DNA from: Escherichia coli
Lineage (GTDB): Bacteria; Pseudomonadota; Gammaproteobacteria; Enterobacterales; Enterobacteriaceae
DNA: 64,000 bases
NCBI RefSeq assembly: GCF_046105845.1
Contig: NZ_CP151004.1
Reading direction: 5' to 3' (one strand)
Under the pieces are notes generated by a model. The model saw nothing but the letters and a program-made list of their open reading frames with translations, was not told the origin of the DNA and made no database searches. Numbering within the stretch: the first letter of the stretch is position 1; the number at the start of each line of letters is the position of its first letter. The position numbers were made by a program, and so were the translations under genes. Positions 3,391 through 34,489 of this stretch are shown here, piece after piece.

Positions 3391-3448
3391 TTCGTAGACA
3401 AACATGTTCACGTTTTGGAATTTGGACGTGCAATTGTGACGTGTAGAC

Positions 3449-3473
3449 GGGTGTTTACATATTGTGAACACCC
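3449..3473. promoter_or_regulatory. Inverted repeat GGGTGTT-N11-AACACCC upstream of the toxin gene; candidate antitoxin operator
   Basis: Perfect 7-bp inverted arms read directly in the sequence; a second related pair (tgttcac near 3406 / gtgaaca near 3464) lies nearby; about 85 bp upstream of the ATG at 3557. Confidence 0.35.
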
Positions 3474-3556
3474 GTGTGATCAACTACTATAGAAAAATAA
3501 ATCCGAAGGAATGGTAGTCCAGGTTTAGTCATTCAGGCGCTAATAAGGAAGTTAAA

Positions 3557-3868
3557 ATGCACATCATTTCTAAAGCGCCATTTGAAGAGTGTGCGCGCAA
3601 ATATCCTAACGACGCTCTGGCTCTACACTCATTGTATCGGGTTATTAAGGAAACGGATTTTTCTACACCAGAAGAAATGCGAACGGCGTTTCCCAACCTC
3701 GACAATTTTAGATATCGCAACAAATGGTACGTTCTGGATGTCGGCGGGAACAATCTTAGGGTTATTGCCTACATAAACTTTGTTAATAAGCGGTTCTTTG
3801 TGAAGCACATAACGAATCACGCAGAGTATGACAAACTGACACGTTACTACAGAGAGAACAAAGAATGA
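3557..3868 (+). CDS. HigB-family (RelE/ParE superfamily) mRNA-interferase toxin
   Basis: 103 aa; recognisable similarity to E. coli HigB (FPNLDNFRY...YVLDVGGNNLRVIA); SD aaggaag upstream; toxin-first order typical of higBA. Confidence 0.75.
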   Translation: MHIISKAPFEECARKYPNDALALHSLYRVIKETDFSTPEEMRTAFPNLDNFRYRNKWYVLDVGGNNLRVIAYINFVNKRFFVKHITNHAEYDKLTRYYRENKE

Positions 3869-4284
3869 CTGCTAATGCTGCACGCGCTGTTAAAGCAACA
3901 AGAGAACTGGTCAATGCAGTCCCCTTTCTGGGAGGTAGTGACTCAGAAGATGATTATCGTGAAGCACTGGAACTGGTCGAATATTTGATTGAAGAAGATG
4001 ACACCAATCCACTTATCGACTTTCTGGCGAGCCGCATTGCAGAATATGAAAACAACAACGAAAAGTTTGCCGAGTTCGACAAAGCCGTTGCAGCAATGCC
4101 GGTTGGCGTGGCGTTACTTCGTACGCTGATTGATCAACATAATCTGACCTATGCGGATTTGAAGAACGAAATCGGCTCTAAATCCCTGGTCAGTCAGATT
4201 TTGTCTGGACAACGATCCCTGACGATATCCCATATTAAGGCACTTTCAGCCCGATTTGGCGTTAAGCCGGAATGGTTTCTTTGA
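3865..4284 (+). CDS. HigA-family HTH (XRE-type) antitoxin
   Basis: 139 aa; start overlaps toxin stop (ATGA); C-terminal HTH-like segment (GSKSLVSQILSGQRSLTISHIKALSARFG) resembling HigA. Confidence 0.75.
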   Translation: MTANAARAVKATRELVNAVPFLGGSDSEDDYREALELVEYLIEEDDTNPLIDFLASRIAEYENNNEKFAEFDKAVAAMPVGVALLRTLIDQHNLTYADLKNEIGSKSLVSQILSGQRSLTISHIKALSARFGVKPEWFL

Positions 4285-4310
4285 TTTTGACTGATGCCAA
4301 ACGCCAGATT

Positions 4311-4335
4311 GCCCGATGCGCAACGCTTATCGGGC
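4311..4335. repeat. REP-like palindromic element
   Basis: gcccgatgcgcaacgcttatcgggc resembles the REP consensus; lies between the antitoxin gene and the ascB 3' end. Confidence 0.4.
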
Positions 4336-4362
4336 TTTCCTGGTTAGTGCGACAGTAGTTAC

Positions 4363-8671: not shown

Positions 8672-9199
8672 ATGAACCGTTTCATCATTGCTGACGCGAG
8701 TAAATGTATTGGTTGCCGTACCTGTGAAGTGGCGTGCGTGGTTTCTCATCAGGAGAATCAGGACTGTGCATCGCTGACCCCGGAAACTTTTTTACCGCGA
8801 ATCCATGTCATTAAAGGTGTGAACATTTCCACGGCAACAGTCTGCCGTCAGTGTGAAGATGCACCGTGCGCTAACGTCTGCCCGAATGGTGCTATCAGTC
8901 GTGATAAAGGGTTTGTTCATGTGATGCAGGAACGTTGTATTGGTTGCAAAACCTGCGTTGTGGCTTGCCCGTATGGCGCGATGGAAGTGGTGGTACGTCC
9001 GGTGATTCGCAACAGCGGCGCGGGGCTGAATGTACGGGCTGACAAAGCCGAAGCCAATAAATGCGACCTCTGTAACCATCGTGAAGACGGCCCGGCGTGT
9101 ATGGCGGCTTGCCCGACTCATGCGCTGATTTGTGTCGATCGTAATAAACTTGAACAACTGAGCGCAGAAAAACGCCGCCGTACGGCGCTGATGTTCTAA
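8672..9199 (+). CDS. hydN: 4Fe-4S ferredoxin-type electron transport protein
   Basis: Multiple CxxCxxCxxxCP motifs; start at MNRFIIAD. Confidence 0.9.
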
Positions 9200-9351
9200 A
9201 AATCTTACAGAACTGTTCTGGCATCAAAGGAATTCCCGGAAATATTCGTAGAATACGGAGCGGGCGGTATCGCCGACCTGTGACTGCCGGATGCGACGCT
9301 GTCGTGTCCGGCTGGGCGGGTTACGCAATTCATGATGGCGGGAATAACTCA

Positions 9352-11592
9352 ATGGCAAAAAACATATCTTGCGGTGTCCAACTGCGTATTCGTGGCAAAG
9401 TGCAGGGCGTCGGTTTTCGTCCGTTTGTCTGGCAGCTGGCACAGCAATTAAATCTTCACGGCGATGTCTGTAATGACGGCGATGGCGTAGAAGTCCGGCT
9501 GCTGGAAGACCCGGAAACGTTTCTTGTGCAGTTGCATCAGCACTGCCCGCCGCTGGCGCGTATTGATAGCGTCGAGCGTGAGCCGTTTATCTGGTCACAA
9601 CTGCCCACTGAGTTCACTATCCGCCAGAGCACAGGCGGCACCATGAATACGCAAATTGTCCCGGATGCCGCCACTTGCCCTGCTTGCCTTGCCGAAATGA
9701 ATACCCCGGGCGAGCGGCGTTATCGTTATCCGTTTATCAACTGTACCCACTGCGGCCCACGTTTCACCATTATTCGCGCGATGCCTTACGACCGCCCGTT
9801 TACCGTGATGGCGGCGTTTCCGCTGTGTCCGGCCTGTGACAAAGAATATCGCGACCCGCTCGATCGTCGCTTCCACGCCCAGCCGGTGGCCTGCCCGGAG
9901 TGTGGCCCACATCTTGAATGGGTAAGTCATGGTGAACATGCAGAACAAGAGGCGGCATTACAGGCAGCTATCGCACAGTTAAAAATGGGCAACATTGTCG
10001 CCATCAAAGGGATTGGCGGATTTCATCTCGCCTGCGATGCGCGTAACAGTAACGCGGTGGCGACACTGCGGGCGCGCAAACATCGCCCGGCGAAACCGCT
10101 GGCGGTTATGTTGCCAGTGGCAGAAGGTTTACCAGACGCTGCCCGTCAGTTGCTTACCACACCCGCCGCGCCGATTGTGCTGGTGGATAAAAAATACGTT
10201 CCTGAGCTTTGTGATGATATCGCCCCTGGCCTTAACGAAGTTGGGGTGATGTTGCCTGCGAATCCGCTTCAGCATTTGCTGTTACAGGAACTGCAATGTC
10301 CGCTGGTGATGACCTCCGGCAACCTGAGCGGTAAACCACCGGCTATCAGCAACGAACAGGCGCTGGCGGATTTGCAGGGCATTGCCGACGGATTCTTGAT
10401 ACATAACCGCGACATCGTGCAGCGGATGGATGATTCGGTGGTGCGTGAAAGCGGCGAAATGCTGCGCCGTTCGCGGGGGTATGTGCCGGATGCGCTGGCT
10501 TTGCCTCCGGGCTTTAAAAATGTTCCGCCTGTGCTGTGTCTCGGCGCGGATCTGAAAAATACCTTCTGCCTGGTGCGCGGTGAACAAGCAGTGTTGAGTC
10601 AGCATCTGGGCGATTTAAGTGACGATGGCATCCAGATGCAGTGGCGCGAAGCGTTACGCCTGATGCAAAACATCTACGATTTTACCCCGCAATACGTTGT
10701 GCATGACGCACATCCGGGCTATGTCTCCAGCCAGTGGGCGCGCGAAATGAATCTGCCGACGCAAACGGTGCTGCATCATCATGCTCATGCGGCGGCGTGT
10801 CTGGCAGAACATCACTGGCCGCTGGATGGCGGTGATGTCATTGCGTTGACGCTCGACGGTATCGGTATGGGGGAGAACGGCGCTTTATGGGGCGGCGAGT
10901 GCCTGCGGGTGAACTATCGCGAATGCCAGCACCTGGGCGGCTTGCCAGCGGTGGCGCTTCCGGGGGGCGATTTGGCTGCAAAGCAGCCGTGGCGTAACCT
11001 GCTGGCGCAGTGCCTGCGCTTTGTGCCGGAGTGGCAGAATTACCCTGAAACGACAAGTGTGCAACAGCAAAACTGGAGCGTGCTGGCGCGGGCCATTGAG
11101 CGTGGAATTAACGCGCCGCTGGCGTCATCGTGTGGGCGTTTGTTCGATGCTGTGGCGGCGGCGCTGGGCTGTGCGCCAGCCACGTTAAGTTATGAAGGTG
11201 AAGCAGCTTGTGCTCTGGAGGCGCTCGCAGCTTCGTGCGACGGAGTGACGCATCCGGTGACGATGCCGCTGGTGGACAATCAACTGGATCTCGCCACTTT
11301 CTGGCAGCAGTGGCTGAACTGGCAGGCACCGGTTAATCAACGCGCGTGGGCGTTTCATGATGCGCTGGCGCAGGGTTTTGCCGCGTTGATGCGTGAGCAG
11401 GCCACGATGCGCGGTATCACTACGCTGGTATTTAGCGGTGGGGTTATTCATAACCGATTGCTGCGTACACGCCTGGCGCATTATCTCGCTGATTTCACAT
11501 TGCTCTTTCCGCAGAGTTTACCGGCGGGTGATGGCGGCTTGTCTCTGGGGCAGGGGGTTATTGCTGCGGCGCGCATCCTGCATACTGCATAG
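9352..11592 (+). CDS. hypF: Carbamoyltransferase HypF (hydrogenase maturation)
   Basis: Acylphosphatase-like N-terminus, two CxxC...C zinc-finger pairs, YrdC and Kae1-like regions; start at [11 protein letters not shown]. Confidence 0.9.
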
Positions 11593-11669
11593 TGGCGGAT
11601 GTGGCGTAACTAAGCGTAAATAGAGCGCGGACAGTCCCCTCGCCCTTTGGGCGAGGGAGAAAAACATGC

Positions 11670-12803
11670 CTATACCGGCAACGTTTTCAACAATCCAAAT
11701 GCCTCTTTCATCCTATCCTCACTGACCACAAAGGCGCGAAGCTGGTCAGCATCGTCAACGCCGCGCGCCACCATTCCCTGGCGTTCGGTATTAATTTGCC
11801 AGCGTAAATCCTGACGCTGGGTTTCGCCTGCCAGATGCAGCGGTAATTCCGGCGTTTTGATTTTCACCAGCATCGCCGGGAGTTTCAGCGGCGTGTTATT
11901 GCCGAGAAGATTTTTTGCCAGCACCATCGCGCTAAGTTGAATCGGCTGGAGGAACGGCAATACCTGACCGTTAATTTCCGCGCAATCGCCCAGCGCATAA
12001 ATATCGGCATTACTGGTTTGCAGATAACTATCGACGCAAACGCCGCGATTAATCGTCAGCCCGGCGCGTCGTGCCAGGGCGGTTTCCGGGCGCAGCCCGG
12101 TGGCGGCAATTATCGCATCCACTTCGATGCAACGCTGGCGGTCCAGCGTTGCCAGAATGCCAGAATCCGTTTTTTCCAGCCCCTGCAACTGAGATTTTAA
12201 CAGCAGATGAACGCCCATCTCCGTCAACCGATGCTGTAAGCGGCTGCTTACTTCCGGTGGCATTAACGATGCCAGAATACTGGCAGCGTTGTCGATTAGC
12301 GTGACCGCTTTGCCTGCACGACAAAAATCCATCGCCAGTTCGCTACCAATCAAACCACCGCCGACAATCAACACGCGTCGGGCATCCCGCAGTTGCGTTT
12401 CACAGGCGCGATACTCTTGCTGACTATTTAACGTCAGCATTAACTCACGCCCGGGCACTGGCGGGACAAAGGCGCTGGCACCGGTTGCCAGCACTAACTT
12501 GTCGTATTGCCACTGATTATTCTGACTTTTCACCACATGGGCTTCGGCATCGATATCCGTTACCCAGGTGTGCGGAAACAGGCGCAGATTAAACTGCTCG
12601 GCAAATTCACCCGCTGTCTGGCGGGTAAGGTCATCGGCACGTTGCCCATGGCTGATAACATGGCTGAGATCCGGTTTGTTGTACTCATCCATGCTGTCGG
12701 CGGCAATCAGGGTTAATGGAATACTGGCGTCCTGTTTGCGAATATTTTTCACCAGTTGGCGGGCGGCGAAGCCCGAACCAATGATCACAATGCCGTTGCT
12801 CAT
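11670..12803 (-). CDS. norW: NADH:flavorubredoxin reductase
   Basis: 377 aa FAD/NAD-binding (GSGFAARQ) protein; overlaps norV stop. Confidence 0.9.
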
Positions 12804-14239
12804 TTTGCCTCCGATGCCAGTTCGTCAAAGACGTCTTTGCCAAGGGAGCATTCCGGGCACAGGAAGTTATCCGGGACTTCACTCCACGGCGTTCCTGGTG
12901 CAACGTCCTGCATTGGCTCGCCTTTTGCCGGATCGTAAATCCACTGGCAGACGCTGCACTGCATCCGTGGGCCGAGGTCAGCCGTCGTGGTGGCAGAGGT
13001 TTCTTCTTTAACCACCGTATTCACCGTGCTCTGCGGCAGCGGCGCGAGCGCCCACTGACGGGCAATTTCACGACCGTGTTCACGGCATAACTCCAGCGCG
13101 TCCTGGTCCGGTCGCCATTTGGCTTTCAGGCTAAGCGACATTTCGAAACCTGCATCCTGCAGGCGTGTGGAAAGACGATCCACCGCACCGCCGCTCCAGC
13201 CGTGAGAGCCGAAAGCACTGGCGTGTTTGTTACGGAAGCGTAATCCGGTCATCTCCTCCACCAGCCCGGCGATTTTCGGCATCATCACGTTATTCATCGT
13301 CGAAGTGCCAACCAGCACGCCTTTTGAGCGGAAGACATTGGTCAGGATTTCGTTTTTATCGCTTCGGGCGACGTTGAAAATTTTCACCGCCACGCGTGGG
13401 TCGGTTTCCGCAATCCCCTGGGCGATAGCGTCAGCCATCATGCGGGTATTATTCGACATGGTGTCGTAGAAAATGGTGATTCTGTCTTCCTGATAATCCG
13501 CCGCCCATTTCAGGTACAGCTCGACAATTTGCGTCGGGTTATCGCGCCATACCACGCCGTGAGAGGTCGCTATCATATCGACTGGTAAGTTAAAGCCCAG
13601 GATCTCGGTAATTTTCGGCGTTACCAGACGGCTGAACGGCGTCAGGATATTGGCGTAGTAACGCTGGCACTGCTCGAAAAGCTCCGTCTGATCCACTTCA
13701 TCGTTGAACAGATGCTCGTCGCAGTAGTGCTGACCGAAAGCATCGTTACTGAACAGCACCGCGTCGCCTGTCAGGTAAGTCATCATGCTGTCCGGCCAGT
13801 GCAGCATTGGCGTTTCGACAAAAATGAGCTGTTTGCCGTTGCCGATATCCAGCGTGTCGCCAGTTTTCACCACATTAAAATTCCACTCCGGATGATGGTG
13901 ATGACCATTTATCGAGTCGATAGCGTTGGCAGTACAGTAGATCGGCGTATCGGGAATTTGTGCCATCAGTTCGGTCAGCGCCCCGGCGTGGTCCTCTTCT
14001 GCATGGTTAATCACGATGTAATCGATATCCGCCAGATCGATTTCATTACGCAGGTTCTGCACAAATTCGCGGCTGAATTTATGGTCGACGGTGTCGATCA
14101 GTACGTTTTTTTCTTCGCGAATGAGGTAGCTGTTGTAGCTGCTGCCGCGCAGCGTTTTATATTCCGTGCCGTGAAAATCACGCACTTCCCAGTCACGTTG
14201 ACCAACCCAATGAATGTTATTTTTCACCACAATAGACAT
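12800..14239 (-). CDS. norV: Anaerobic nitric oxide reductase flavorubredoxin
   Basis: 479 aa; C-terminal rubredoxin CxxC...CxxC ([12 protein letters not shown]). Confidence 0.92.
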
Positions 14240-14285
14240 AGCAACCTCAATTTATTCAGCGTGTTCTAAAAAGATGTCTTGCTAA

Positions 14286-14303
14286 TTGCAGATTGCGTGC
14301 CAG
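14286..14303 (-). promoter_or_regulatory. Sigma-54 (-24/-12) promoter of norVW
   Basis: Minus strand reads TGGCACGCAATCTGCA, with GG and GC at canonical spacing. Confidence 0.7.
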
Positions 14304-14357
14304 TTTTTTATCTAATTGTTTTTACTATATAAATAAAATTATGCTCATTAATGAGTA

Positions 14358-14413
14358 GTCAAAATGACTATCAATCAAATGGTCGATATGACAATATCTA
14401 TAGTCAAATTGAC
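14358..14413. promoter_or_regulatory. Three NorR enhancer sites (GT-N7-AC inverted repeats)
   Basis: gtcaaaatgac (14358..14368), gtcgatatgac (14382..14392), gtcaaattgac (14403..14413) upstream of the sigma-54 promoter. Confidence 0.7.
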
Positions 14414-14425
14414 AGTGAGGCAAAG

Positions 14426-15940
14426 ATGAGTTTTTCCGTTGATGTGCTGGCGAATATCGCCATCGAATTGCAGCGTGGGATTGGTCATCAGGATCGTTTT
14501 CAGCGCCTGATCACCACGCTGCGTCAGGTGCTGGAGTGCGATGCGTCTGCATTGCTACGTTACGACTCGCGGCAGTTTATTCCGCTTGCCATCGACGGGC
14601 TGGCAAAGGATGTACTTGGTAGACGCTTTGCGCTGGAAGGTCATCCACGGCTGGAAGCGATTGCCCGCGCCGGGGACGTGGTGCGCTTTCCCGCAGACAG
14701 CGAATTGCCCGATCCCTATGACGGTTTGATTCCCGGGCAGGAGAGTCTGAAGGTTCACGCCTGCGTTGGTCTGCCATTGTTTGCCGGGCAAAACCTGATC
14801 GGCGCATTGACGCTCGACGGGATGCAGCCCGATCAGTTCGATGTTTTCAGCGACGAAGAGTTACGCCTGATTGCCGCGCTGGCGGCGGGAGCGTTAAGCA
14901 ATGCGTTGCTGATTGAGCAACTGGAAAGCCAGAATATGCTGCCGGGCGATGCCGCGCCGTTTGAAGCGGTGAAACAGACGCAGATGATTGGCTTGTCGCC
15001 AGGCATGACGCAATTGAAAAAAGAGATTGAGATTGTGGCGGCGTCCGATCTCAACGTCCTGATCAGCGGTGAGACGGGAACCGGTAAGGAGCTGGTGGCG
15101 AAAGCGATTCATGAAGCCTCGCCACGGGCGGTGAATCCGCTGGTCTATCTCAACTGTGCCGCACTGCCGGAAAGTGTGGCGGAAAGTGAACTGTTCGGGC
15201 ATGTGAAAGGGGCGTTTACTGGCGCTATCAGTAACCGCAGCGGGAAGTTTGAAATGGCGGATAACGGCACACTGTTTCTCGATGAGATCGGCGAGTTGTC
15301 GTTGGCATTGCAGGCCAAGCTGCTGAGGGTGTTGCAGTATGGCGATATTCAGCGCGTTGGCGATGACCGCAGTTTGCGGGTCGATGTGCGCGTGCTGGCG
15401 GCGACTAACCGTGACTTACGGGAAGAGGTACTGGCAGGGCGATTTCGCGCCGATTTGTTTCATCGCCTGAGCGTGTTTCCACTTTCAGTGCCGCCGCTGC
15501 GTGAGCGGGGCGATGATGTCATTCTGCTGGCGGGGTATTTCTGCGAGCAGTGTCGTTTGCGGCTGGGGCTCTCCCGCGTGGTATTAAGCGCCGGAGCGCG
15601 AAATTTACTGCAACACTACAGTTTTCCGGGGAACGTGCGTGAACTGGAACATGCTATTTATCGGGCGGTAGTGCTGGCGAGAGCGACCCGCAGCGGCGAT
15701 GAAGTGATTCTTGAGGCGCAACATTTTGCTTTTCCTGAGGTGACGTTGCCGCCGCCAGAAGCGGCGGCGGTGCTCGTTGTTAAGCAAAATCTGCGTGAAG
15801 CGACAGAAGCGTTCCAGCGTGAAACCATTCGCCAGGCACTGGCACAAAATCATCACAACTGGGCTGCCTGCGCGCGAATGCTGGAAACTGACGTCGCCAA
15901 CCTGCATCGGCTGGCGAAACGTCTGGGATTGAAGGATTAA
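14426..15940 (+). CDS. norR: Sigma-54-dependent NO-responsive transcriptional activator
   Basis: GAF-AAA+ (GETGTGKE Walker A, GAFTGA)-HTH architecture; start at MSFSVDVL. Confidence 0.92.
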
Positions 15941-16902
15941 ATAATCCCGGCCTGATAGAAATCCTGCAGGTTAATTGCGCCGGTGAGTTTGCCGTTTTCA
16001 TCCACCACCGGTGCGGCAGTGATTTTGCGCTTCATCAGGATCTCTTTGGCGTCGATGGCGCGACTTTGTGCCTGTAATGTGGTGCCGCCTGTCGTCATCG
16101 CTTCATTAACTGGCGTGGTGAGTGCGCCGCCGCCAACCAGCCAGCGACGTAAATCGCCGTCGGTAAAGACGCCTTGTACCTGTTGTTGAGCGTCACATAC
16201 CGCCACCAGCCCCAGACCGGTGCGACTGAGCTCCAGCATCGCATCCATCACGCTGGCGGTTAACGCTACCTGCGGGATAGCGTCATCACGGCGCATCAGA
16301 TGATGCACTTTATTCAGCAAGCGAGCGCCCAGTGCCCCGGCTGGGTGGGAGCGGGCAAAATCTTCTTCATTAAATCCGCGCGCCTGCATGACCGCCATCG
16401 CCAGCGCGTCACCCATCATCAGGGTATTGACGGTGCTGGAGGTCGGCGCAAGGTGCATCGGGCAGGCTTCGCGTTCTACGGAGATATCCAGCACCGCTTT
16501 CGCCGCCAGGCCCAGCGGTGACGTCGGTTTGCCGGTCATCGCCAGCAGCGCGATAGATTTATCTTCCAGACGCGGAATAATCAGATCCAGTTCCTTCGCG
16601 CCACCGGAGTAAGAGATAAACAGCATCACATCGCGGCTTTCAATCATCCCCAGATCGCCGTGCAGTGCTTCTGCCGGATGGACAAAAAAAGCCGGTGTGC
16701 CAGTGCTGGCAAGCGTTGCGGCGATTTTCTTACCTATGTGGCCCGATTTGCCAATTCCCGAAACCACCACTTTGCCTTCGCAGTGCAGGATGATATTGGC
16801 GGCGCGAACAAAATCATCGCCCAGACGTTCCGGTAAACGGCTTGCTTCCTGCAACTCCAGCATTAACGTCTGACGTCCCGCGTTCAGTAGTGCTTCACTC
16901 AT
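15937..16902 (-). CDS. gutQ: Arabinose-5-phosphate isomerase (SIS + CBS domains)
   Basis: 321 aa; stop overlaps the norR stop on the opposite strand. Confidence 0.9.
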
Positions 16903-17668
16903 TGCTCTCTCCGGTTATGATCACATCGATCCCTTTCTTTTCCAGCGCCTGACGAAACGCTGGATCGATACCTGCGTCGGTAATTAGCTTATCGACGCTT
17001 TCAAGACTGCAAACTACGTTGGGGCTTTTACGGCCAAACTTTGATGAGTCCGCCATCAAAATCACTTCGCGAGCGGCATTGCACATTGCCTTACTGACGG
17101 TATAAACCTCGTTGAACGTGGTTACGCCCGCATTGAGATCGATGCCGTCGGTGCCCATAAACAATTTATCGAAGGTGAAATGCTCGAAGGCATTCTCTGC
17201 CAGTTGCCCGTGAAATGAGGCCGATTTTTTACGAAATGTTCCGCCTGGCATCAGGATAGTTTGTTCGTTATCCAGTTCGGATAGCGCATTGACGATATGC
17301 AGGCTGTTGGTCATCACTGTGATGTTATTAAAGCGCGAGAGCAGGGGAACCATCTGCAAAACGGTACTGCCAGCATCAAGAATGATCGAATCGCCATCAT
17401 GGATAAAACTAACGGCAGCTTCTGCAATCAGCTCTTTCTTGTGGGTGTTGATGAGTGTTTTATGATCGATAGGCGGATCGGATTCCTCTTTATTCAACAC
17501 CACTCCGCCATAAGTACGAATGACGGTTCCGGCATGTTCCAGAATGACCAGATCTTTGCGGATGGTTGTGCCTGTGGTGTCAAAGTATTGCGCCAATTCT
17601 TCAACCGAGCATTTACCCTGCTTTTGCAGATACTCCAGAATGGCGGCCTGACGCTGACGAGGTTTCAT
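16895..17668 (-). CDS. srlR: DeoR-family glucitol operon repressor
   Basis: 257 aa; N-terminal HTH ([24 protein letters not shown]). Confidence 0.9.
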
Positions 17669-17734
17669 GGGCGTGATTACCTGATTTAGGTTTCAAAATG
17701 ATAACTTCGCAAGCAAGTAACATTCACAACGAAA

Positions 17735-18094
17735 TTATCCACGTTTCAGTTTAAGCGCCAATGATAGAGCATTCTGTGATAGTGGATCATGGGGAAAGAT
17801 CACATCGGGCTGTAAATCACCCGCATACATACCGGTAATTGCGGGAATTTTTTGCGGTCGGGCGAAGACGGTCAGTCCTTTCATAAACAAGGTGTCGACG
17901 ATGCGTTGCTGATCGTCCAGGGCGATGGCGACCACGACCCGCGGTTTAAAGCGCCCGCTGGAACGGCCCACGCCAACCCGCCCTTGCTGGCATAGTGTGT
18001 CGAAGGCACGGTTAAAACGAGAAATTTGCCAACCGCCTAAGGCCAGTTGCGCACACCAGGCGATAACGGCGACGGTGATGAGTGCGGATACCAT
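17735..18094 (-). CDS. gutM: Glucitol operon activator
   Basis: 119 aa, position between srlD and srlR. Confidence 0.85.
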   Translation of the reverse strand: MVSALITVAVIAWCAQLALGGWQISRFNRAFDTLCQQGRVGVGRSSGRFKPRVVVAIALDDQQRIVDTLFMKGLTVFARPQKIPAITGMYAGDLQPDVIFPHDPLSQNALSLALKLKRG

Positions 18095-18127
18095 AACTTT
18101 TCCTTAATGTAGTGGCGGAAGTCCTGT

Positions 18128-18156
18128 ATGCCTGATGAGCGTAGCGCATCAGGCAT
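18128..18156. repeat. REP-like palindromic unit
   Basis: atgcctgatgagcgtagcgcatcaggcat, perfect 10-bp arms; srlD-gutM intergenic. Confidence 0.6.
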
Positions 18157-18199
18157 TCTATTAGTCGCGCGGAGATCCTTAAAAGATCTCCGCTGTTGA

Positions 18200-19354
<1,155 letters not shown>

Positions 19355-21139: not shown

Positions 21140-22225
21140 ATGTTCAAGCGTCGTTATGTAACATTGCTTCCCCTTTTTGTGTTGCTTGCCGCCTGTAGCA
21201 GCAAGCCAAAACCTACTGAGACTGAAACGACCACCGGAACGCCGTCTGGCGGCTTCCTGCTTGAGCCGCAGCACAATGTGATGCAGATGGGCGGCGATTT
21301 CGCTAATAACCCGAATGCCCAGCAGTTCATCGACAAAATGGTGAACAAACACGGTTTCGATCGTCAGCAGTTGCAGGAAATTCTCTCCCAGGCGAAACGT
21401 CTGGATTCGGTACTGCGGCTGATGGATAACCAGGCACCAACCACATCGGTGAAACCGCCATCAGGTCCGAACGGCGCATGGCTGCGTTATCGCAAAAAAT
21501 TTATTACGCCGGACAACGTGCAGAACGGTGTGGTTTTCTGGAATCAGTATGAAGATGCGTTGAATCGCGCGTGGCAGGTGTATGGTGTACCGCCGGAAAT
21601 TATCGTCGGGATTATCGGCGTTGAAACCCGCTGGGGGCGCGTGATGGGGAAAACTCGCATCCTCGATGCGCTGGCAACGCTGTCATTTAACTACCCACGC
21701 CGCGCGGAGTATTTTTCTGGCGAGCTGGAAACCTTCCTGCTGATGGCGCGCGACGAGCAGGACGATCCGCTCAATCTGAAAGGTTCCTTTGCCGGGGCGA
21801 TGGGCTACGGACAGTTTATGCCGTCGTCTTACAAACAATACGCGGTAGATTTCAGCGGCGACGGGCATATCAACCTGTGGGATCCGGTTGATGCCATTGG
21901 TAGTGTGGCGAACTATTTCAAAGCGCACGGCTGGGTGAAAGGTGATCAGGTTGCGGTGATGGCAAACGGTCAGGCTCCAGGCTTGCCAAATGGCTTCAAA
22001 ACCAAGTACAGCATTTCGCAGCTTGCCGCGGCAGGTTTAACGCCACAGCAGCCGCTGGGCAACCATCAACAAGCCAGCCTGCTGCGTCTGGATGTCGGTA
22101 CCGGTTACCAGTACTGGTACGGTCTGCCGAACTTCTACACCATCACCCGTTACAACCACAGTACCCATTACGCAATGGCGGTCTGGCAGTTAGGACAAGC
22201 CGTGGCGCTGGCGCGCGTGCAGTAA
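21140..22225 (+). CDS. mltB: Membrane-bound lytic murein transglycosylase B
   Basis: Lipoprotein signal MFKRRYVTLLPLFVLLAACSS; start moved from ORF-track 21035 to 21140. Confidence 0.9.
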   Translation: MFKRRYVTLLPLFVLLAACSSKPKPTETETTTGTPSGGFLLEPQHNVMQMGGDFANNPNAQQFIDKMVNKHGFDRQQLQEILSQAKRLDSVLRLMDNQAPTTSVKPPSGPNGAWLRYRKKFITPDNVQNGVVFWNQYEDALNRAWQVYGVPPEIIVGIIGVETRWGRVMGKTRILDALATLSFNYPRRAEYFSGELETFLLMARDEQDDPLNLKGSFAGAMGYGQFMPSSYKQYAVDFSGDGHINLWDPVDAIGSVANYFKAHGWVKGDQVAVMANGQAPGLPNGFKTKYSISQLAAAGLTPQQPLGNHQQASLLRLDVGTGYQYWYGLPNFYTITRYNHSTHYAMAVWQLGQAVALARVQ

Positions 22226-28071: not shown

Positions 28072-28164
28072 GGTGAGGTGGCCGAGAGGCTGAAGGCGCT
28101 CCCCTGCTAAGGGAGTATGCGGTCAAAAGCTGCATCCGGGGTTCGAATCCCCGCCTCACCGCCA
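28072..28164 (+). tRNA. serV: tRNA-Ser (anticodon GCU)
   Basis: 93-nt cloverleaf with long variable arm, anticodon loop cuGCUaa, encoded CCA. Confidence 0.9.
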
Positions 28165-28167
28165 TTT

Positions 28168-28244
28168 GCATCCGTAGCTCAGCTGGATAGAGTACTCGGC
28201 TACGAACCGAGCGGTCGGAGGTTCGAATCCTCCCGGATGCACCA
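28168..28244 (+). tRNA. argV: tRNA-Arg (anticodon ACG), copy 1
   Basis: 77 nt gcatccgtagctcag...gatgcacca; anticodon loop cuACGaa. Confidence 0.9.
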
Positions 28245-28378
28245 TATTCTACATATTTTCAGCGATGAAGGTATGGAAGAGGTGGCGGTAATAACCGCAG
28301 GCACTAGGGAGGATAACGTTGCTTTAGCAACGGCCCGAAGGGCGAGCCGCAAGGCGAGTAATCCTCCCGGATGCACCA
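28245..28378 (+). repeat. Inter-tRNA repeat unit ending in a 19-nt copy of the tRNA-Arg 3' end
   Basis: aatcctcccggatgcacca at 28360..28378 identical to the tRNA-Arg 3' end; the unit has a paralogue at 28800..28932. Confidence 0.6.
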
Positions 28379-28442
28379 TCTCTTACTTGATACGGCTTTA
28401 GTAGCGGTATCAAAAAATCTGCAGTAAAGTAAGTTTCCCGAT

Positions 28443-28519
28443 GCATCCGTAGCTCAGCTGGATAGAGTACTCGGCTACGAACCGAGCGGTCGGAGGTTCG
28501 AATCCTCCCGGATGCACCA
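28443..28519 (+). tRNA. argY: tRNA-Arg (ACG), copy 2
   Basis: Identical 77-nt tRNA-Arg sequence. Confidence 0.88.
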
Positions 28520-28582
28520 TCTCTTACTTGATATGGCTTTAGTAGCGATATCAATATCAGCAGTAAAATAAATTTTCCCGAT

Positions 28583-28659
28583 GCATCCGTAGCTCAGCTG
28601 GATAGAGTACTCGGCTACGAACCGAGCGGTCGGAGGTTCGAATCCTCCCGGATGCACCA
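28583..28659 (+). tRNA. argZ: tRNA-Arg (ACG), copy 3
   Basis: Identical 77-nt tRNA-Arg sequence. Confidence 0.88.
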
Positions 28660-28722
28660 TCTCTTACTTGATATGGCTTTAGTAGCGATATCAATATCAG
28701 CAGTAAAATAAGTTTTCCCGAT

Positions 28723-28799
28723 GCATCCGTAGCTCAGCTGGATAGAGTACTCGGCTACGAACCGAGCGGTCGGAGGTTCGAATCCTCCCGGATGCACCA
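28723..28799 (+). tRNA. argQ: tRNA-Arg (ACG), copy 4
   Basis: Identical 77-nt tRNA-Arg sequence. Confidence 0.88.
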
Positions 28800-32365: not shown

Positions 32366-32381
32366 TCAGTTTAAGCAGAAG

Positions 32382-32414
32382 AGGCCGGGCTGGTGAAATC
32401 ACCGCCCGGCTTTT
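32382..32414 (+). terminator. Intrinsic terminator shared by convergent luxS and the HD-kinase gene
   Basis: gccgggc-tggtgaaatcaccg-cccggc hairpin followed by tttt; the minus-strand stop is at 32416..32418. Confidence 0.75.
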
Positions 32415-32415
32415 A

Positions 32416-33528
32416 TTACCTGTCAGTCACCCAATATTCCACACTATGTGCTTCATCAGGTTGAGGAACTTCCAGCCTTGAGGCCATCCGCATCACGACC
32501 GCTTCAGGAACTGCATACTCGCGTCTGGCATTTTGCTGCTTCCATTGCTCCCATGGCACTTCCAGATAAACGATTTTTACTCGTGCGCCGTAAGCCGTAA
32601 ACAGACTGATGAGCTGGCTACGCAGCTGGCGGGTAATGTTCGTCGCATTCCAGATGAACGGCTTTTTCTGGCGTAAAAAAACGCGCGCCTCTTCTTTTGC
32701 CTGTTGCACAATACGCCCGGTGGCGGTTTTGTCGTCCGGGCTGGCATTGATTCGCCGCCGCATATCATCAAGGCTGATAACGTCCATTCCCAGGCACAGT
32801 TCACTGATATAGCGATCTTTGCCCATACCCGGTAAGCCACACAGCAAAATAACCTCAAAAGATTCAGCCTCCCAGGGAACAAAATCAGGAGAACTTTGCT
32901 CATGAGTCAGGTAGTGCCAGCGTGCGGAATCAGACACGAACGGGCGCGCTTTTCCCCAGCATTGTTGCTCATGGCAAAACAGCTCGAACAGATCGATGCG
33001 TTCCAGCATTGATTGCTGGTCCGGGCTTTGGCGACCAAGCAGATCGGCACGAGCAAGCAAAGCGAGCAAACGCGTGTCGATGCGCATTGCAGCTGTGAGC
33101 AGCAAACGCTCCGGTTCCGGACGTTCCAGTAACCATAGCGGTAACCCATGCAGACGCACCAGCGCAACAATTTGCTCGCGTAGCACGAACGGCGTTGGGA
33201 TATCGCGCCATAAAATTTGTCGGGCCGTCAGTTCGCCCCGACGAGCATGGCCAGGCGACTGAATACGTCCGTTTTCCTGCACGGTAGTGCTGCGCTTTTC
33301 AACATCATGCAATAACGCCGCCGCCCATAAAACTTCCTGCTGTTGAGCGGGGAGTTGCTGGAATTCTGGCAGAGTAACGAGGGCGTTAAGTACCATTTCG
33401 GTATGCACGCCGACGTCGCCTTCACCATGATGCTCCGGGTCTTGTGGCGTGTGATGCATCTCCTCAACCCAACTGAAACGCTGGCGTAGCGCCGACCAGC
33501 GTTTATCGTCGGTAAGCTGCCAAATCAT
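32416..33528 (-). CDS. HD-domain phosphoesterase fused to a P-loop polynucleotide-kinase-like domain (putative end-healing enzyme)
   Basis: 370 aa; N-terminal HD signature ([11 protein letters not shown] ... AALLHDVEK ... GHARRG ... RLHGL ... ARADLLGR); C-terminal Walker-A-like [12 protein letters not shown] with Walker-B-like DVISLDD; start overlaps the upstream ligase stop (ATGA). Confidence 0.65.
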
Positions 33529-34232
33529 GATTGTTCTCCATAGGTGAACTCATGGGCCATCCGCGCCCGTTGCCAGTGGCGTTTCCAGTGTACGGTAGTT
33601 TTGACATGATTTTTGCGTACATACTTGAAGACGTTATGCGAAAAGTCAGCGACGGAAAACGCATCACGATTCCGGCTGACAATGCCTTCCAGCGTACAGG
33701 GTTGCCCGGTTTGTGTATCCCAGGGATCGAACGCGCCGCGCGCATTGGTCAGCGCCAGAAAATCACGTTGCCAGCTTTTTTCATCATTCCCCGGCTGCGG
33801 GCCGGAGATTTCGGGAACGCAGGGGAAATCAAACAGAGCGGCGTAAAACTGCACCTCTTCCCAGCTCAGCCACATATCCTGGCAGCGAACGGCAAACAGA
33901 TAAAAATCCTGCTCCAGGGCGCGATATTCAATCGAATGGACGGCATAAAGATTTTCACCAAACAACTCCAGATCGCCGAGATCGTTTTTCAGCAGTTGCC
34001 AGCGTTGGCGAATTTTATAGGTCCATGCCGACTGCGTAGGCGCGGCATGGGAACGGGCAAACACGCCGTAGCGGTTAAGGCAGTTATTTTCACCGTCGAG
34101 TTTTTCTGTGTGCACCAATTGCGTGATGGCCTGTAAATCCTGCCAGTAATCGGTGTTAATACGGTCATCGCTGGTGGTGCCAGGGGAGAAAGGATAATGC
34201 CAGGTTCTCCCGTATTTTCGTTGGGTATTCAT
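33525..34232 (-). CDS. ATP-dependent RNA ligase, Rnl2-like nucleotidyltransferase
   Basis: 235 aa; motif [10 protein letters not shown] (KxDGxN), motif III-like [11 protein letters not shown], motif IV-like EGIVSR, motif V-like FKYVRKNH. Confidence 0.65.
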
Positions 34233-34456
34233 AATAATCCATTATTTTGTGTGTAATAAATGTACGCCCGCGAGGGTGCGAGTTATGGGGTTAAAAGAAA
34301 AATGTGAGTATCACCCGCGAAAGCGAGGGCGAAGGAAAAAGAGAATTAACAACCTGAGCGAATGCTCAGAACCGGTTAATGGTGAATGGAAGAGTTTGGG
34401 GCGGCGAAAAGATACACCGAATGAGTGGATAAAACAACCGTTTGCAAAATGAGCAA

Positions 34457-34480
34457 ATAAAAAGGGAGCCGCAGCTCCCT
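34457..34480 (-). terminator. Intrinsic terminator of emrB
   Basis: Minus strand: gggagctgcggctccc hairpin followed by tttttatttg. Confidence 0.7.
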
Positions 34481-34489
34481 TTGACAACC

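Follow-up and report, generated by a model that had tools for sequence, protein, structure and literature searches.

NorR enhancer sites and a sigma-54 promoter in the norR-norVW intergenic region of Escherichia coli

Results

The norR-norVW locus

The stretch of E. coli DNA analyzed here (the window, 64 kb in length) is collinear with positions 2,784,616-2,845,962 of K-12 MG1655 in reverse orientation, and contains a norR-norVW locus with the same genes in the same order and orientation as in K-12 (PMC2831303), where norR, norV and norW are annotated at the corresponding positions. On the plus strand, norR (14426-15940) encodes a 504-residue enhancer-binding protein with NO-sensing GAF, AAA+ and DNA-binding regions; divergently, on the minus strand, lie norV (12800-14239), for a full-length flavorubredoxin NO reductase of 479 residues, and norW (11670-12803), the second gene of the regulated operon, for an NADH:flavorubredoxin reductase of 377 residues. 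The gap between norV and norR measures 186 bp and includes, next to norV, a predicted 5' leader (14240-14276, minus strand) that bears the ribosome-binding site GAGG and is identical to that of K-12. The norR start is the ATG at 14426, giving the 504-residue protein; the in-frame ATG upstream, at 14351, which appears in the list of open reading frames, is a wrong start.

Each gene was assigned from its identity to K-12 together with Pfam matches. All three proteins are full length and share 97-99% identity with their K-12 counterparts: 497 of 504 residues are the same in NorR, which aligns from end to end, 476 of 479 in NorV and 367 of 377 in NorW (7, 3 and 10 differences, respectively). Pfam recognizes GAF, Sigma54_activat and AAA_lid_14 domains in NorR, ODP/Lactamase_B, Flavodoxin_1 and Rubredoxin domains in NorV, and Pyr_redox_2 and Rbx_binding domains in NorW. 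The C-terminal HTH of NorR falls below the Pfam threshold, yet residues 451-504 equal those of K-12, and the GAFTGA and Walker A motifs are both present. The norV gene is free of the 204-bp type of deletion found in O157:H7 ATCC 43890; the O157 locus used for comparison has a shorter norV coding sequence.

Three NorR enhancer sites

Three 11-bp inverted repeats lie between norV and norR, each of which fits both the GT-N7-AC motif and the stricter form GTC-N5-GAC. Site 1, the promoter-proximal repeat, reads GTCAAAATGAC (14358-14368); site 2 reads GTCGATATGAC (14382-14392); and site 3, the norR-proximal repeat, reads GTCAAATTGAC (14403-14413) and stops 12 nt short of the norR ATG. The spacers between successive sites measure 13 and 10 nt, such that the site centers are 24 and 21 bp apart. 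Mapping of the mutagenic primers of Tucker 2010 onto the window placed the Site 1, Site 2 and Site 3 primers at 14349-14376, 14374-14399 and 14396-14425, where the sole mismatches are the T>G and A>C substitutions engineered into the primers (GT>GG and AC>CC) at 14359/14367, 14383/14391 and 14404/14412; in addition, the 21-bp site-1 oligonucleotide of the same study matches at 21 of 21 positions. The primers thus fall on exactly the three repeats, so that the alignment to characterized NorR sites proposed in an earlier, preliminary description of this DNA bears out its claim that three GT-N7-AC sites are readable in the norR-norV region. The interval that it had assigned to the sites and promoter, 14286-14413, brackets these features exactly.

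The properties of these repeats have been established in K-12. NorR binds each of the three sites, and mutation of any single one abolishes induction of a norV-lacZ fusion in vivo, while removing NorR protection at the mutated site only (PMC2831303); both NorR ATPase activity and open-complex formation require all three (PMC2831303). The DMS footprint of NorR extends from -137 to -84 relative to the norV start (PMC2831303), the sites are conserved across proteobacteria (PMC2831303), and genomic SELEX in K-12 recovered the norR/norVW spacer as the sole NorR-bound region (PMC8249747). Because the elements in the window are identical to the K-12 sites that were footprinted and mutated, the preliminary description was right to call the arrangement known biology, and the experiment that it had named as decisive, mutation of the repeats, already exists on identical sequence: the published K-12 mutants lose NO induction (PMC2831303).

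A fourth perfect palindrome of the form GTCA-N3-TGAC occurs at 14192-14202, inside the norV codons for G-Q-R-D. We rejected it as a NorR site: only 6 of 22 norV homologues retain it, although all encode the same peptide there, and the ends of the published reporter fragments cut through it. This palindrome is a by-product of the norV coding sequence.

The sigma-54 promoter and the start of norV

Facing norV on the minus strand is a motif match to a sigma-54 -24/-12 promoter, TGGCACGCAATCTGCA (14302-14287), with the GG of the -24 element at 14301/14300 and the GC of the -12 element at 14289/14288. It is the sole match to TGGCAC-N5-YTGCW in the 64-kb window. The -12 element reads CTGCA where the consensus has TTGCA, leaving 10 of 11 consensus positions in agreement; the element described beforehand as canonical therefore has the expected GG/GC pair, spacing and orientation toward norV, but departs from the consensus by one base. 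The same sequence, TGGCACGCAATCTGCA, is found unchanged in K-12 and in six other sampled E. coli genomes, and the TGGCA of the -24 element and the TG of the -12 element are invariant among 17 enterobacterial sequences. Consistent with its assignment, genomic SELEX with RpoN holoenzyme yields a peak in the norR/norV spacer of K-12 (PMC8743547), and norV of Salmonella belongs to the sigma-54 regulon (PMC3844500).

On either strand, 53 nt separate the outermost G of site 1 from that of site 3, in agreement with the reported footprint limits. With -137 assigned to the outermost G of site 3 and -84 to that of site 1, we infer a norV +1 at about 14274-14276 (14274 or 14276), which would place the GC of the -12 element 12-15 nt upstream of the start of transcription. 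A promoter for norR was not located by a sigma-70 scan, which returned one weak match on the minus strand, fewer than in shuffled sequences.

Weighing the motifs against chance

Matches to short motifs can cluster by accident, and one reading of the locus is that its GT-N7-AC and -24/-12 matches are such a cluster in an AT-rich intergenic region, devoid of any regulatory role. Motif counts lend this reading some footing. The bare GT-N7-AC motif occurs 220 times in the window, where two other three-site clusters fall within 56 bp (around 22098-22161 and around 24920), and at least one non-overlapping triple arose in 137 of 400 random 64-kb sequences simulated under a first-order Markov model; the sigma-54 promoter pattern, for its part, is expected 0.26 times per window and appeared at least once in 23 of 100 shuffles. 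The bare triple is too common by chance to serve as a test of significance and was discarded for that purpose. The GTC-N5-GAC form argues the other way: it occurs 13 times in the window, forms a triple at norR-norV only, and produced a triple in none of the 400 simulations.

Because motif counts alone are weak, the weight of the evidence comes from context and from identity with characterized DNA, and what lies beyond chance is the combination of position, orientation and identity to the K-12 elements. The sequence is that of sites already footprinted and mutated, and the published site mutants refute an accidental origin (PMC2831303); moreover, an array spaced in this manner, next to a norR start and a sigma-54 element, is found again in genomes ranging from Escherichia to Pseudomonas and the Comamonadaceae. 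We consider the probability of a chance cluster to be close to nil.

The AT-rich spacer between promoter and enhancer

Promoter and enhancer are separated by a 55-bp spacer (14303-14357), delimited by its A+T content (84%, vs 49% for the window), which corresponds to the IHF region of the literature: IHF binding maps between the enhancer and the start of norV (PMC2831303), and two IHF sites have been described in the native norV promoter (PMC11334186). A consensus scan of the spacer for IHF sites gave as its best result a two-mismatch match to WATCAANNNNTTR at 14309-14321, a quality of match found at background frequency; in other enteric bacteria, the position that aligns with it, immediately upstream of the -24 element, is occupied by a canonical AATCAANNNNTTA.

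The 186-bp intergenic region differs from that of K-12 at three single bases (G>A, G>T and C>T in norV orientation), all of them in this spacer, one within the N4 part of the AATCAANNNNTTA motif; the three NorR sites, the -24/-12 element, the 13- and 10-nt inter-site spacers, the 55-nt distance to the promoter and the leader are all identical. In every comparison that we made, the AT-rich spacer was the most variable segment.

Conservation and loss within E. coli

The 261-bp region containing these elements was found in 5425 of 5426 complete E. coli genomes. Of the records matching its 68-bp enhancer segment, 3608 agree at every base (100% identity) and another 1815 differ at 1-3 positions. 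Among six aligned full-length genomes, polymorphisms fall in the spacer between sites 1 and 2, in the AT-rich spacer or just downstream of the -12 element, leaving the repeats and the -24/-12 element without polymorphism.

The lowest-ranked of the 5426 matches is E. coli AF3, a blood isolate (NZ_OZ547117.1; locus L003:1531-1691, equivalent to window 14358-14413), which has a 45-bp deletion. The deletion apparently has the GTCA motifs of sites 3 and 1 as its end points, leaving one hybrid site. Since published single-site mutants lose induction, AF3 should be non-inducible for norVW.

The differences between the window and K-12 admit a second alternative, namely that the three spacer substitutions and/or the seven in NorR have quantitatively altered or disabled the switch in this lineage. 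The differences are real: NorR carries T177A, C316S, Q380L, H412Y, T443P, V446A and P450L, among them H412Y and C316S in the AAA+ and lid region. Judged from its sequence, moreover, the window derives from a less-sampled E. coli lineage, with the best complete RefSeq E. coli genome at most 98.7% identical over the 10 kb from 9000 to 19000, and AF3, with its one remaining site, demonstrates that natural loss of the enhancer exists. Yet two of the three spacer variants are found in other E. coli genomes, within a segment that varies most in any case. All three genes have intact reading frames, and public data contain proteins identical to NorR, NorV and NorW, recorded under E. coli, on 6-23 contigs (one of these contigs being 4.74 Mb long), which argues for a viable allele. 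NorR residues 1-176, comprising the GAF domain with its ligand region, the Walker A and GAFTGA motifs, and the C-terminal, DNA-binding 54 residues (451-504) are free of substitutions. An altered or disabled switch is accordingly very unlikely in our judgment, and we found no evidence that contradicts a K-12-like reading of the locus.

Conservation across species

A search of one genome per species with the pattern GTCA-N3-TGAC, N8-18, GTC-N5-GAC, N5-15, GTCA-N3-TGAC yielded at least 120 loci. Because these loci were chosen by the site pattern, conservation of the pattern bases themselves is circular; spacing, neighboring genes and promoter are independent of the choice. In 49-50 of the at least 120 loci, the gene for a NorR homologue (46-99% identity) begins at a distance of 5-104 bp from the array; these loci include Escherichia albertii, Citrobacter, Kluyvera, Enterobacter, Lelliottia, Pseudescherichia, Phytobacter, Cedecea and Morganella, as well as Shewanella, Photobacterium, many Pseudomonas, Comamonas and Diaphorobacter. 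The distance from site 3 to the norR start is 12 nt in nearly all Enterobacterales species examined, and the 13/10 inter-site spacing recurs in the Enterobacterales alignment.

A promoter of the form TGGCA[CT]-N5-YTG[C/A] faces away from norR in 40 of the 47 loci with enough flanking sequence, against a background of one such match per 12.8 kb in the same loci. Its distance from site 1 is either 41-43 nt (24 loci) or 53-56 nt (16 loci), with nothing between. The target gene in other species is norV or, judged from N-terminal sequence only, a flavohaemoglobin-like gene beginning MLSAQDRAIV... The -12 sequence CTGCA is common to Escherichia, Citrobacter and Kluyvera, and TTGAT or CTGA is found in Enterobacter, Lelliottia and most Pseudomonas.

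The two distance classes divide along taxonomic lines. The 53-56-nt class comprises enterobacterial norV loci with a -12 of CTGC (Escherichia, Citrobacter, Kluyvera) or TTGA (Enterobacter, Lelliottia and others), and the 41-43-nt class is mostly Pseudomonas and Comamonadaceae, most with a flavohaemoglobin-like target and with a -12 that is mostly CTGA or TTGA and in some cases TTGC (example loci of the two classes are L013, L035 and L076 vs L014 and L020, within the range L010-L126). One speculative and, by our estimate, rather improbable interpretation is that the classes could represent two looping geometries, for example with and without one site for a bending protein, having different induction thresholds, and that the spacer and NorR substitutions of the present strain could retune its response to NO.

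Several Pseudomonas genomes carry additional NorR-type triple arrays that have no adjacent norR within the flanking sequence covered (L041, L059, L065, L073, L098, L104, L126, L044, L074, L110, L122 and L084:8126-8181). A number of these arrays have a TGGCACG-N4-CTGA promoter 41 nt away, and the products of their neighbors, judged by N-terminal sequence only, resemble flavohaemoglobin, NnrS, a 116-residue secreted glycine-rich protein and a PhnB/VOC-like protein. These arrays probably mark further members of the NorR regulon.

Among the at least 120 matches, 43 are simple tandem repeats, mostly from Bacteroidales and Actinobacteria, and were set aside as unrelated to NorR. In metagenome-assembled genomes (MAGs) of Bacteroidales (L009, L017, L031-L033, L067-L071, L101-L102), GTCA-N3-TGAC forms tandem arrays with a period of ~23 bp and 12-nt spacers, which recur at several loci per genome and are likewise unrelated to NorR.

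Discussion

We regard it as nearly certain that the locus is the E. coli norR-norVW divergent control region, working as established for K-12; its function in the source strain is predicted from this identity. According to this model, each of the three inverted repeats, which lie about 87-134 bp upstream of the norV start, would be occupied by a NorR dimer, as happens on identical DNA in K-12; occupancy of all three sites, which in K-12 is required for the ATPase activity of NorR, would lead to assembly of the NorR hexamer. From the literature, sigma-54 RNA polymerase is expected to wait as a closed complex on TGGCAC-N5-CTGCA, and IHF to bend the 55-bp AT-rich spacer such that the NorR ring can contact the polymerase. 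Binding of NO to the ferrous iron of the NorR GAF domain would then lift repression of the AAA+ domain, and ATP hydrolysis would open the promoter, allowing norVW to be transcribed and NO to be reduced to N2O by flavorubredoxin and its reductase, again as described in the literature. With just 12 nt between the end of site 3 and the norR ATG, the bound array may also cover the norR promoter or leader, an arrangement that fits the reported regulation of norR by its own product (PMC8249747, PMC11334186) and the K-12 annotation of NorR as a 'dual regulator'.

The preliminary description had further called the architecture complete and the switch intact. The four elements are indeed in place and the reading frames are intact, but the IHF sites are unreadable by consensus, and rpoN and ihfA/ihfB are located outside the 64-kb window, so that these words reach slightly further than the sequence of the window itself, the more so as NorR differs from that of K-12 at seven residues.

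Comparison with related systems shows which features are shared. The NorR (FhpR)-type enhancers of hmp/fhp-like genes in Pseudomonas and the Comamonadaceae likewise consist of three GTC-N5-GAC repeats beside a norR homologue that is transcribed divergently, and the TGGCAC -24 element points, as here, to an NO-detoxifying gene. They differ in their inter-site spacers (14-15 and 8-9 nt vs 13 and 10 in the window), in the distance from site 1 to the promoter (41-43 nt vs 55), in the -12 element (CTGA/TTGA vs CTGC) and in the target, which is flavohaemoglobin-like rather than a flavorubredoxin. A NorR-type enhancer is also known from upstream of norA in Ralstonia eutropha. More broadly, systems of the NtrC-glnAp2 type resemble NorR in having upstream activator sites, a loop to the sigma-54 closed complex assisted by IHF or bending, and a hexameric AAA+ activator driven by ATP. 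NorR is set apart from other enhancer-binding proteins by its need for all three sites, with DNA itself as the ligand that allows the hexamer to assemble and to hydrolyze ATP, and by its signal, which is NO at the iron of the GAF domain as opposed to phosphorylation. Three dimer sites that build a hexamer are also found in the three-box arrangement of TyrR (PMC2831303).

The NorR enhancer, the IHF region and the sigma-54 norVW promoter are already known, and their presence here is neither novel nor surprising; the value of the analysis is that of correct annotation and quality control, and it advances no open question. The norV promoter is widely used as a part in NO biosensors. Unlike O157:H7 strains that have a truncated norV, or AF3 with its collapsed enhancer, the E. 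coli lineage represented by the window would appear from its sequence to keep a complete and functional NorR/NorVW defense against NO.

Other features of the window

Elsewhere, the window departs from K-12 at several places. Between luxS and emrB lies a 2.1-kb insertion (32371-34488) that holds a two-gene cassette on the minus strand, encoding a 235-residue RNA ligase (PF09414, 33525-34232) and a 370-residue protein (32416-33528) with a C-terminal AAA_33 kinase-like domain; the two genes overlap by 4 nt, and the cassette has the appearance of an RNA-repair module. Between hycI and ascB, an insertion (3393-4357) that adds about 0.8 kb net contains genes for a HigB-family toxin (3557-3868, PF09907) and an HTH_3 antitoxin (3865-4284). 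Finally, an array of tRNA-Ser(GCU) and tRNA-Arg(ACG) genes occupies 28072-28799, with a spacing unlike that of serV-argVYZQ in K-12.
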